This document shows, piece by piece, positions 2,524 to 6,513 of a DNA stretch of 64,000 nucleotides. The DNA is taken from contig CAZPSE010000004.1 in assembly GCA_964589575.1 (NCBI GenBank), positions 4,075-68,074 of the forward strand. Direction: 5' to 3'. Each line of letters starts with the position of its first letter. Positions within the stretch are counted from its first letter, which is position 1. Below the pieces are notes generated by a model. The model had not been told where the DNA came from. It made no database searches and worked only from the letters and a program-made list of their open reading frames with translations. Origin of the DNA: an uncultured Gammaproteobacteria bacterium (lineage in GTDB: Bacteria > Pseudomonadota > Gammaproteobacteria > QNFE01 > CAZPSE01). Position numbers and translations under genes: made by a program.

Positions 2524-3951
2524 AATAAACCACAAAACCACAAAACCACAAAACCACAAAACCACAAAACCACAAAACCCCATCAATCCCAAGCTAAGTT
2601 TTTTTTTGCGTTAAGCTTTCTCTTTTTAACCGCGTGCGGCGGTTCTTCCGACTCTACTCCATCATCTACTAATACAGCACCCGTTGCGAATAGCCAAAAC
2701 ATAACAGTAGACGAAGATAACAATAGGGCAATAACCCTAAGCGCAACCGATTCTGATAACAATACCTTAAGCTATACCGTAATCACTCAACCAAGTAATG
2801 GTTCGCTAACAGGTACAGCGCCTAATTTAAGTTATACCCCAAATGCCGATTATAACGGTGCAGACAGTTTTACCTTTAAAGCTAATGATGGTACGGTAGA
2901 TTTTGCAACCGCAACAGTAAATATAAGCATTAACCCAATCGCAGACGTAAACCTAAGCAATGTTAGCCAAAACGAAGGCAGTAGTGGTACAACTACAGTA
3001 ACCTTTACGCTCACTTTAGATGCTTTTGAAAATACCGCCAGTGTTGATTATGCAACCCAAGACAATACCGCAATCGCTGCGAATAATGACTATGTAGCAA
3101 AAGCAGGTACCGTAACCTTTACGGGGGGTATAACCACACAAACCATTAGTATTACGGTTAATGGCGAGGGCACCGTAGAAGACGACGAAACCTTTACTTT
3201 AAACCTAAGCAACCCCAGTAATTTACAACTGGCTAACACCAGCGCCATTGCCACTATTAAAAATGATGATGCGCCAAGGTTAAACGACACAGGCATAACC
3301 TGGGCAGGGGGATACGCTGGTGGTAATAAAACTGGCAATGACTGCACCACAACAACCATTACCGGCAACCAAGACTGTCACCAAGGGCGCGACAGCACCA
3401 ATAATGACGACACCGACGGCATGGCAGGTTTTAGCTTTACCAAGCTAGATAATAATGCAGTAGCCTTAGCAGACCAAAGCCAAACCAACCACGTTTGTGT
3501 AAAAGACAAGATAACAGGGCTAATTTGGGAGGTAAAACAAACCACAGGCACACGCAGTAACACTACTAGATACCGTTGGGGTGGTTTAACGGCTATTGGC
3601 CGTAACCATGCCAGTAAAGAAGGCACATACTATGATGATTGGAATGTACTGATAAATTACGCAAACGATACCGATAATGCCAACACTACAGATAGTGCAT
3701 TATGTGGCTTTACCGACTGGCGTGTGCCAGATAGTGAAGAATTACGATCAATAGCCCATTTAGGTAAAAGCAACCCTGCGATCGATCAAAACTATTTTCC
3801 TAATACCAAAATAAATGATGGGTATTGGAGTTCGTCGCCCATTGCTAACAACTCTCACAATGCCTGGAGACTGAACTTTAACAGAGGCCATGACAGCGGT
3901 AACATTCGTAGCAATTACGATTATATGCGTTTAGTTAGAGGCGGACAGTGA
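2524..3951 (+). CDS. DGR target 1: lipoprotein with Ig-like (Big_9/cadherin-type) domain, Calx-beta domain and C-terminal DUF1566 (CLec-fold) domain; start codon unresolved
   Basis: Frame open from 2524 to stop at 3951, far upstream of the listed ATG 3421. Lipobox LTA-C (Cys 2635-2637), APVANSQ...YTPNADYNGADSFTF, VDYATQDNTA...ETFTLNLSNP, LNDTG, DWRVP..EL, YWSSS...RLVR motifs. No in-frame ATG/GTG/TTG before the lipobox. Confidence 0.85.
   Translation, partial: NKPQNHKTTKPQNHKTTKPHQSQAKFFFALSFLFLTACGGSSDSTPSSTNTAPVANSQNITVDEDNNRAITLSATDSDNNTLSYTVITQPSNGSLTGTAPNLSYTPNADYNGADSFTFKANDGTVDFATATVNISINPIADVNLSNVSQNEGSSGTTTVTFTLTLDAFENTASVDYATQDNTAIAANNDYVAKAGTVTFTGGITTQTISITVNGEGTVEDDETFTLNLSNPSNLQLANTSAIATIKNDDAPRLNDTGITWAGGYAGGNKTGNDCTTTTITGNQDCHQGRDSTNNDDTDGMAGFSFTKLDNNAVALADQSQTNHVCVKDKITGLIWEVKQTTGTRSNTTRYRWGGLTAIGRNHASKEGTYYDDWNVLINYANDTDNANTTDSALCGFTDWRVPDSEELRSIAHLGKSNPAIDQNYFPNTKINDGYWSSSPIANNSHNAWRLNFNRGHDSGNIRSNYDYMRLVRGGQ
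2530..2577 (+). repeat. Simple sequence repeat (CCACAAAA)6
   Basis: Six exact 8-bp units; a T9 tract follows at 2599-2607. Confidence 0.97.
3823..3951 (+). repeat. DGR variable repeat VR1
   Basis: Aligns to TR with 10 mismatches at TR adenines and 2 at non-A positions; has 15 nt absent from TR. Confidence 0.92.
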
Positions 3952-3964
3952 TTTAATTTTTATT

Positions 3965-4332
3965 ATGTCAAATTATCAAAACATTCCTATCTTGCGTGAT
4001 GCACGCCTAATGATGGTTGAAGTAGAACGGACTGTAAAAGACTTTCCTCGTTATCATAAATACACCATGGGCAGTGAATTAAGAAAAAAAGCCATGGATA
4101 TTTATCAGTTTGTTAGCCGTGCCATACAATATAAGCATACCCGTGCAAAATGGGTGCAACATTTAATGCTTGCGATAGATGATTTTAAATGCCAAATACA
4201 AATAGCCAAATAGCCAAAGAGCTGAAAGTATTTAAAAGCTTTAAACAGTTTGAATTATTAGCCAAATACAGCCTTGCTTTAAGCAAACAAAGCAAAAGCT
4301 GGTTGCAAAAAATAGGTGCAACCCATGGCTAG
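3965..4332 (+). pseudogene. avd: DGR accessory variability determinant (Avd-like four-helix bundle), disrupted
   Basis: FPRYHKYTMGSELRK motif; position between VR1 and TR; 8-bp duplication TAGCCAAA (4203-4218) creates TAG at 4211; removing one unit restores a 119-aa ORF ending at 4332. Confidence 0.85.
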
Positions 4333-4358
4333 CCCAGTTGTAACGTCAACAGCCCGTA

Positions 4359-4401
4359 AAAATAGGGTTGTTAAAATAATCTATTTTAACAACCCTATTT
4401 T
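4359..4401. other. Perfect 20-bp hairpin between avd and TR
   Basis: AAAATAGGGTTGTTAAAATA-ATC-TATTTTAACAACCCTATTTT. Confidence 0.85.
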
Positions 4402-4507
4402 GTGTGCTGATTTCACTGTGCTCCCCAAACACCTGCTTGCAGGTAATAGTGAGCAAACCTACTACGTAAAAATTGTGGGTAAGCGTTTAAGTTTTGGGGT
4501 TAAACAT

Positions 4508-4621
4508 CATTGGAGTTCGTCGCCCAATGCTAACAACTCTAACAATGCCTGGAAACTGAACTTTAACAACGGCAATGACAACAATAACAATTATATGCGT
4601 TTAGTTAGAGGCGGAAAGTGA
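4508..4621 (+). repeat. DGR template repeat TR
   Basis: AAC/AAT-rich copy of the VR1/VR2 sequence; differences fall almost only at its adenines; lies between avd and RT. Confidence 0.93.
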
Positions 4622-5253
4622 AGCAGTGTGTTAGCTATAAAAGTTTGTATTGTGCATGGCAAACTTGCCGTAAAGGTAAAAGTGCAGGCACGCAAGCACA
4701 AATGTACGAAGCAAACGTGCTAGAAAACTTACATAACACACAACAGCTAATGGCAACCATGGCAAGCTATTATGGCCATGTGGCTCACGCTAAGTATTAC
4801 CGTCAAACAATGGCTATATTTAAACAATATTATTACTTGTCGTACTTATATCACCCTATCAACATAAAAAATAAGGGTTTAAAACCTTGCATAACCCCCC
4901 TGCAAGTTACAGGGTTTAAGGCGCAATGTTATTATTTTAGCCAAAGTATTAATGGCTATGCAGCACTTACCTTAATACAAAAAGGCTATTTATTGGTAGT
5001 AAGTAGTAATGATGCACAAATAATAAGCCCTATTTTTGTACGGCAAGCTAAAAAAATAACCCAAAAGCAGTTTTCTTACCCATTAAAAAGTTGGGCTTTA
5101 ATAAGGCAGCAGTTACTTAACAATAATTTAAGTTATCAATTTATAACAGAGCAGGGTTATTTAAAAGGCGGGTTAAAAAAACGTGTACTAAAAGAACTCT
5201 TTATAAACAACCATCAAATAAACCCCATATGGAGTGACAATGCCCCAAAGTAA
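4618..5253 (+). pseudogene. DGR reverse transcriptase remnant: N-terminus joined in frame to the C-terminal region, catalytic core absent
   Basis: SLYCAWQTCRKGK...YEANVLENL resembles DGR RT N-termini; SYYGHVAHA resembles their C-terminal motif; no YxDD; only 211 aa. Confidence 0.75.
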
Positions 5254-5761
5254 AACGATAATAATTTTAATGGTACTAAGCAGTGTTTTAAGCAGTACAG
5301 CACAGGCACAAACCATAAAAAACTATATAGATAACCAATGGAAAAACAGCCGTTACACTAACCATAATGACGCTACCGTAACAGACACCAAAACAGGCTT
5401 AATGTGGAAACAATGTGTAGAAGGTTTAACCGGCAATACGTGTGGTACAGGCACTGCAGTTACCACCTACACTTGGAAGGCTGCGCTAGAGTTAGCCAGT
5501 AGTACCACTTTTGCCACTTATAGCGATTGGCGGCTACCTAACATTAAAGAACTGGCAAGCCTAGTAGCGCGCGATCGTTATAGCCCTGCCATTAATAGTA
5601 GCCTTTTCCCTAATACGCCAAGTATCCGTCATTGGAGTTCGTCGCCCGCCGATGCTGGCGGCTCTGACGGTGCCTGGGGACTGAACTTTGAGCGCGGCGT
5701 TGACAGCGGTGACGATCGTATCAATGACTATTGGATGCGTTTAGTTAGAGGCGGACAGTGA
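5240..5761 (+). CDS. DGR target 2: secreted DUF1566 (Lcl C-terminal, CLec-fold) protein
   Basis: GGAG RBS before ATG 5240; signal peptide; VTDTKTGLMWKQC, DWRLPNIKEL, HWSSS...RLVRGG motifs; ends in VR2. Confidence 0.9.
   Translation: MPQSKTIIILMVLSSVLSSTAQAQTIKNYIDNQWKNSRYTNHNDATVTDTKTGLMWKQCVEGLTGNTCGTGTAVTTYTWKAALELASSTTFATYSDWRLPNIKELASLVARDRYSPAINSSLFPNTPSIRHWSSSPADAGGSDGAWGLNFERGVDSGDDRINDYWMRLVRGGQ
5630..5761 (+). repeat. DGR variable repeat VR2
   Basis: Aligns to TR with 22 mismatches at TR adenines, 2 at non-A positions, a 3-nt insertion and the same 15-nt extra segment as VR1. Confidence 0.92.
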
Positions 5762-5776
5762 TTTAATTTTTATTTT

Positions 5777-5830
5777 TACCCCGTACCGAGCAAGGCTCGT
5801 AACGTTACGAGCCTTGCTCGGTACGGGGTA
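5777..5830. repeat. REPIN-like perfect palindrome 2
   Basis: 54-bp perfect palindrome with the same REP core, lacking the central GC. Confidence 0.9.
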
Positions 5831-5847: not shown

Positions 5848-6513
5848 ATGTCTGTTAGAAAAATCACTTTTGTTAATGATGGCTATTACCATGTTTTTAA
5901 CCGTGGGGTAGATAAACGCGTTGTTTTTACCGATAGAGATGAGTTAAATTTTTTCTTAAACCGATTGAGTGATTTAAATAGCGTGGATACTTCGAACGCT
6001 TTAAAGAGTAAACGCTATAGGTTAAAGGGCGAACTTGCCCTTGCAGATACTGAAAAGTTGGTTAGTATTGTGGCTTATTGTGTTTTGCCTAATCATTTTC
6101 ATTTATTGTTAAAACAAAAAACAGACGATGGCATTAGTAAGTTTATGCAAAGGCTTGGTACGTCTTATGTGCATTTTTTTAATAAAAAACATCAGCGTTT
6201 GGGCAGTTTGTTTCAGGGTAAGTTTAAAGCTACGGCTTTAAATGGCGATTATGCTTTGGCAAAAGTTGCTAGTTACGTTAATTTAAATTTTAAGCATCAT
6301 CGTATTGACCCCAAAAAGAATATAGTTAAGTCGAGCATGGCTGAATATATTGCGCTTAATGTAGAAAACCCTATTTGTGATAGCCAAGAAATTAGCAATA
6401 TTATTGATGAGGTGGGTGGTGTAAGCCAATATAAAGAAATGGCAAAAAGTGCATCTATTGTTTTTGCCAGTAATAAAAGCACAAGTCTTTCTGAAAAAGA
6501 TTTCGAATTTTAA
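5848..6513 (+). CDS. REP-associated tyrosine transposase (RAYT/TnpA-REP, Y1 HUH family)
   Basis: YYHVFNRG, AYCVLPNHFHLLL (HUH), FQGKFK and YVNLN (catalytic Tyr position) motifs; palindromes on both sides. Confidence 0.88.
   Translation: MSVRKITFVNDGYYHVFNRGVDKRVVFTDRDELNFFLNRLSDLNSVDTSNALKSKRYRLKGELALADTEKLVSIVAYCVLPNHFHLLLKQKTDDGISKFMQRLGTSYVHFFNKKHQRLGSLFQGKFKATALNGDYALAKVASYVNLNFKHHRIDPKKNIVKSSMAEYIALNVENPICDSQEISNIIDEVGGVSQYKEMAKSASIVFASNKSTSLSEKDFEF

Follow-up and report, generated by a model that had tools for sequence, protein, structure and literature searches.

The window analyzed here, a stretch of 64,000 nucleotides from an uncultured gammaproteobacterium (contig CAZPSE010000004.1), carries on its forward strand a DGR cassette between window positions 2524 and 5830. 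The cassette comprises two target genes of the Lcl_C (DUF1566) type, an avd gene, a template repeat (TR), and an ORF encoding a 211 amino acid protein, all of them on the same strand. The first target, a lipoprotein-type Lcl_C/DUF1566 gene (2524–3951), has a frame that is open from position 2524 and that contains no ATG, GTG, or TTG codon before position 3421; within 2524–3421 there is a lipobox-like LTAC sequence and, at the 5′ end, an octamer-encoded repeat, KPQNHKTT, present twice. Comparison with the TR identified the 3′ end of this gene as VR1 (about 3822–3951). Downstream lie avd (3965–4332), which is split into frames of 82 and 47 amino acids, and the TR (about 4507–4621). The 211 amino acid ORF (4618–5253) is placed directly 3′ of the TR, with a GTG start that overlaps the TR end, and its stop codon falls 20 nt inside the second target gene, the start of which (a GTG at 5234 or an ATG at 5240) is thus located within the end of this ORF. 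Target 2 (5234–5761) encodes an intact, exported Lcl_C (DUF1566) protein of 175 amino acids, and comparison with the TR placed VR2 at its 3′ end (about 5629–5761). The initial annotation of this region had described the variable domains of both targets as intact; the damage nevertheless extends beyond the machinery, as target 1 has no start codon before position 3421.

A perfect 27 + 27-nt palindrome is located 3′ of VR2 (5777–5830), followed by an IS200/RAYT-like Y1 transposase gene (5848–6513). This palindrome is multi-copy in the source run, with a summed depth of ~37 as compared with ~8.6 nearby; contigs end there, and its variants carry 2–4 central bases.

To identify the 211 amino acid protein, we relied on its homologues. 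Neither Pfam nor NCBIfam gave any match in this product, a PDB sequence search with it gave none, and word-index homologue searches (for both longer proteins and proteins of near length) returned the query alone. A search of sixty related genomes with it likewise gave nothing, since few relatives of this lineage have been sequenced. In the PHROGs database, residues 3–44 had a weak match annotated as "reverse transcriptase". An exhaustive HMMER search against 1.84 billion representatives recovered 80 relatives, with phmmer E-values down to 5e-18. The long relatives, of about 500–580 amino acids, are RVT_1 proteins in which both IGNLTSQ and YVDD are present; IGNLTSQ, which corresponds to the DGR-specific [I/L]GxxxSQ motif of reverse transcriptase (RT) domain 4, is found in all full-length homologues and falls within the stretch that is deleted in the window. 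The two halves of our ORF match the N-terminal segment of these long relatives and their C-terminal ~150–170 amino acids. Accordingly, alignment against the full-length homologues shows a single gap of ~300 residues, bounded in the window protein by NLHNTQQ, at the end of the N-terminal segment, and by LMATMASYYGH, in the thumb helices, with the finger and palm motifs (IGNLTSQ and YVDD included) absent.

The same division was obtained with HMMs of the separate parts, built from 26 full-length homologues, which placed the N-terminal segment at residues 2–43, the thumb end at residues 43–80, and the C-terminal domain at residues 88–197 of the window protein, while the HMM of the RT core had no match in it. 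The remnant is accordingly described as an N-terminal RT segment (residues 1–43, 4618–4746), recognized by its HMM, the PHROGs match, and the RT N-termini of relatives; the last thumb helices, recognized by the thumb-end HMM and containing the SYxGHxxHA motif (residues 44–80, 4747–4857); and a MutS domain I-like (MSL) domain, recognized by the C-terminal HMM and by its fold (residues 88–197, 4879–5208). The N-terminal segment is 72–76% identical to sequences of relatives that run on into the RT fingers. The linker 5′ of the MSL domain contains the hexapeptide NIKNKG (residues 82–87, 4861–4878), which is also found in the finger region of the RTs of two close relatives (P0007 and P0012), an identity that may be due to chance.

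The position of the junction was obtained from L003, a hydrothermal-vent metagenome contig with ~80% nucleotide identity to the window. L003 and the window are colinear across avd, the TR, and the initial 43 codons of the RT, and this colinearity stops at base 4746 (CAACAG), past which L003 continues into the fingers of the RT core and the window into the thumb end (CTAATG). Since colinearity ends at this base, we place the deletion junction at 4746/4747, inside the interval 4741–4750 that had been proposed for it, and the missing RT core corresponds to about 0.9–1.0 kb. As a third of all deletions preserve the frame by chance, an open frame after the deletion is unremarkable. The searches revealed no intact RT in any close relative. 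In L003 and its cluster the RTs end after about 130 residues; the break motif TSNTPFVI is common to L003, P0007, P0012, and P0083, and in L003 (1040–1200) the end of the RT frame is directly followed by a VR-like target end (RLVRGGQ and stop). The alignment of homologues, the colinearity with L003, and the HMMs all agree with the initial annotation in that the catalytic core was removed in frame. We conclude that the 211 amino acid ORF is very probably a DGR RT-MSL that has lost its catalytic core by an in-frame deletion, in a DGR that is now frozen.

The C-terminal domain was analyzed through its predicted structure. An AlphaFold2 model derived from a 49-sequence alignment (mean pLDDT 80.9, pTM 0.73) was compared with the PDB using Foldseek, and the best 50 rows were all MutS, MSH2, MSH3, or MSH6. 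Using VIA-align, residues 95–200 of the model could be superposed on residues 8–119 of E. coli MutS and 229–338 of human MSH3 with Z-scores of 10–11 (~100 residues of MutS domain I aligned, rmsd ~3 Å), the next unrelated fold being the damage-recognition domain of XPB, with a Z-score of 5. In agreement with the fold, 16 of the 49 family members match the Pfam MutS_I family (PF01624; best E-value 1.3e-14), although the window protein has no such match at E ≤ 1. The model thus identifies residues 95–200 as a MutS domain I-like fold, and the resemblance to an MSL module that had been suggested from the letters of the DNA is borne out by both the fold match and the MutS_I matches of the homologues. 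Where MutS has its mismatch-contacting Phe and Glu, the window protein has Leu125 and Val127, within the aligned residues G-Y-L-L-V, whereas some family members keep the MutS-like G-x-F-x-E-x-[FY] motif. As Glu is found at the mismatch-contacting position in only 26 of the 49 members, its loss is not in itself a sign of decay.

This domain allows the window protein to be placed among known systems. About 20% of DGR RTs have been reported to be extended at the C-terminus by as many as ~150 amino acids, three of these extended RTs show weak similarity to MutS_I, and some DGRs have stand-alone MSL proteins as accessory genes (PMC5758913; bioRxiv 10.1101/2024.11.15.621889). As in the DGR RTs that bear a MutS_I-like extension at their C-terminus (Wu et al.), the gene in the window lies directly after the TR. 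The N-terminal segment, the thumb end, and the C-terminal domain are homologous to those of RT-MSL DGRs, and the order of the cassette (Lcl_C target, avd, TR, RT-MSL, and small Lcl_C target) is shared with them; however, the whole polymerase core of ~300 amino acids, with IGNLTSQ and YVDD, is missing from the window protein, which is thus what remains of such an RT rather than a functional representative of this group. With the stand-alone MSL proteins (Architecture D, the Legionella DGR, and Bacteroides Msl) the window protein has a likeness of size (211 amino acids, within the published 112–283), fold (MutS domain I-like), and context (a cassette bearing avd). It differs from them in that its N-terminus derives from an RT, its origin is a deletion within an RT-MSL fusion, and it has no RT partner. 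In comparison with MutS itself, the protein has the fold of domain I but none of the connector, clamp, or ATPase domains.

The RT is not the only part of the cassette with lesions. Comparison of the TR with the two VRs showed the signature of a DGR, as 31 of 35 mismatches fall at TR adenines. For VR1, this is the case for 9 of 11 mismatches, with 2 elsewhere, and for VR2, which also has one extra codon that is absent from the TR, it is the case for 22 of 24, again with 2 elsewhere. A stretch of 15 nt that is present in the TR of L003 is missing from the TR of the window (site near 4589/4590). These 15 nt are kept in both VR1 and VR2, in an adenine-mutagenized form and inside the mutagenized stretch. 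In avd, an 8-bp tandem duplication relative to L003 (4200–4215) gives rise to the 82 and 47 amino acid frames, whereas the avd gene of L003 is intact and encodes 117 amino acids. A distant core-less cassette (P0042) has an avd called as ORFs of 74 and 47 amino acids, similar to the 82 and 47 of the window. The avd and TR lesions that the initial annotation had noticed are therefore real by comparison with L003, and the cassette has no intact RT, no intact Avd, and no TR colinear with its VRs. Inactivated DGRs are common (Wu et al.), and the window shares with them the presence of multiple lesions in the machinery together with a TR and VRs that can still be recognized. It differs from them in the nature of its RT lesion, as the core was cleanly excised in frame and what is left is a translatable two-part protein.

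We then analyzed whether the targets could be served by machinery encoded elsewhere in the genome, as the initial annotation had left the choice between a frozen DGR and targets serviced in trans. The assembly comprises 1.94 Mb in 94 contigs and is 100% complete by marker genes. A search of the assembly with PF00078 (RVT_1) gave no match, and since RTs are found by the same Pfam search in other genomes, which served as the positive control, this negative result is meaningful. A tblastn search of the assembly with seven full-length RT-MSL proteins and two partial relatives detected no other RT, the only matches being those of the RT-MSL N- and C-terminal parts at the window locus itself, and blastn revealed no further TR, VR, or avd in the assembly. 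Thus, the proposed search of the genome for an intact DGR RT found none in the 94 contigs. In addition, homing would have copied the TR deletion into the VRs; as both VRs keep the 15 nt, no homing has taken place since that deletion. As far as the sequence of the genome can tell, a frozen DGR is supported and service in trans is disfavored.

Taking these lesions into account, a single deletion of ~0.9–1.0 kb, in frame by chance, removed the fingers, the palm, and the initial portion of the thumb, so that codon 43 is now followed by the last thumb helices, and the resulting product, if made, is incapable of DNA polymerization. With the avd frameshift, the loss of 15 nt from the TR, and the lack of another RT in the genome, mutagenic homing has come to a halt and both VRs are frozen. 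We infer that the remnant is itself without function, except that its translation may perhaps carry ribosomes on into the start of target 2, which it overlaps.

With respect to the age of the lesions, the comparison of the window with L003 over avd and the RT N-terminus gave a pS of 0.46–0.50 and a pN/pS of 0.27–0.36, which indicates that both were constrained for most of the divergence between the two sequences. Of 40 conserved family columns, the remnant itself retains 31, among them the E-x-G-Y-L-x-G-G-x-K-x-R motif, a number within the range of intact members. These comparisons suggest that the lesions are recent, although a remnant conserved to this extent would be expected just as well under continued selection as after a recent deletion.

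It should be noted that this conservation also agrees with a different explanation, in which the core-less protein is kept by selection, either as an accessory or nucleic-acid-binding protein of the MSL type or as a translation coupler into target 2. The overlap of the ORF end with the target 2 start would suit the latter role, and the existence of stand-alone MSL proteins as accepted DGR accessory genes (PMC5758913) the former, but there is no RT in this genome for an accessory protein to assist. This explanation would also be favored by the recurrence of such forms: among 83 related proteins, 27 are full length, 9 are fully core-less in frame (the window included), and 11 have partial in-frame core deletions. 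The order avd, remnant, and small Lcl_C target is found at six loci (P0042, P0023, P0017, P0053, P0011, and the window), and a large upstream Lcl_C target is present on the same contig in three cases (P0042, P0023, and P0053), while the core-less locus P0004 has no avd. However, the junctions of the core-less forms all differ, these forms occur as singletons or two-member clusters, and in a tree of the thumb-end and MSL region the 7 core-less rows require 6 changes, which is no better than shuffled labels. For these reasons we rejected a conserved core-less family, which had been considered because several homologues of 210–230 amino acids align end to end with the window protein. The homologues of similar length, which could have pointed to a non-RT origin of the ORF, turned out to be independent RT remnants.

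The retention of the parts and of the frame must be read with the search itself in mind, as our searches find only remnants that keep the parts of the query. About a dozen C-terminal-only ORFs were also detected, which could be the out-of-frame counterparts of the core-less forms and which fit the expectation of one in-frame deletion in three. Taking into account this search bias and these possible counterparts, retention and frame are no evidence of selection. A similar picture was obtained from species-representative genomes, where 22 loci with the MSL end motif, mostly from Gammaproteobacteria, include 13 intact, 1 frameshifted, and 3 core-deleted loci and 5 MSL-end fragments. One pair of core-less forms that have the same junction (P0011 and P0081) appeared to be informative, with 12 synonymous and 7 non-synonymous codon changes (pN/pS 0.3). 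We set this ratio aside as a sign of selection, since the mismatches are unevenly distributed along the sequence (0 in 430 nt, 23 in 445 nt, and 0 in 300 nt) and point to recombination, which weakens the signal. Furthermore, the C-terminal MSL motif is destroyed in a close relative, L002, in which VR1 and the TR are collapsed, avd is missing, and the RT is broken at other places. We therefore regard maintenance of the remnant by selection as unlikely.

Other relatives show further arrangements. In L002 (1–2122), VR1 and the TR have apparently recombined, and the target continues without interruption into an RT remnant that has degraded in another way. In L008 (1418–2289) and L009 (656–1527), a gene encoding a 121 amino acid GIY-YIG nuclease is located at the expected site of the RT core, with a 4-nt overlap with an ORF that consists only of the thumb end and the MSL domain. 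In L011 (670–2062) and L012 (107–1448), the same core-less junction and an identical TR are found; their VR2s differ at many sites, all of them TR adenines, and the flanks of VR2 are identical. This pattern could be due either to homing after the deletion, with an RT acting in trans, or to recombination with intact alleles in the population.

The L011/L012 pair thus hints at a non-autonomous cassette, and a core-less RT-MSL could represent a recurrent route from autonomous to non-autonomous cassettes, in which the remnant is useful, another RT does the rewriting, and the window is a late stage; we consider this improbable. Even less probable is that the cassette of the window is non-autonomous and still active, with RT and Avd provided by an unassembled replicon, a phage, or a co-resident strain. 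In favor of this idea, the assembly consists of 94 contigs, so that an RT may be encoded on an unassembled plasmid or phage, and the N-terminal RT codons have been retained at the expected site of the DGR RNA spacer, in addition to the VR2 differences at TR adenines in L011 and L012. Nevertheless, the 15 nt present in both VRs and absent from the TR indicate that neither VR has been rewritten since the TR deletion. The extra codon of VR2 is not in the TR, non-adenine mismatches are starting to accumulate, and no second TR, avd, or RT is found in an assembly that is complete by marker genes. The evidence from both VRs and from the assembly therefore makes an active cassette of this kind very unlikely.

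Finally, an assembly or binning artefact, with an intact RT in the real genome, can be practically dismissed: coverage is low (about 8–9×), the sample is a metagenome, and repeats (VR/TR and REP palindromes) break contigs nearby, but an independent contig of the source run (Logan, 1840 nt) is identical to the window across 3925–5764 and shows neither a loose end nor another joint at 4746, the junction preserves the frame and lies outside any repeat, and comparable deletions with other junctions occur in assemblies unrelated to this one, among them a 1.58-Mb contig at 52×. This comparison was made at the level of contigs, in four runs of which two represent one data set, and the runs with a small share (X3 and X6) contain short fragments of relatives only.

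Altogether, the locus represents an ordinary fate of a DGR, one that was probably inactivated recently and is now frozen, and the recurrence of core-deleted remnants in the RT-MSL clade leaves this ordinary nature unchanged. It provides a well-mapped case of the death of a chromosomal DGR, in which the RT core has been excised in frame, avd frameshifted, the TR shortened by a deletion, and the start codon of target 1 lost, while target 2 is intact and its last variant has become fixed. The analysis also confirms that a clade of mostly gammaproteobacterial DGR RTs has a genuine MutS domain I-like domain, on which fold and homologue sequence agree, where the earlier published support for a MutS-like domain in RTs had been a weak similarity in three of them.
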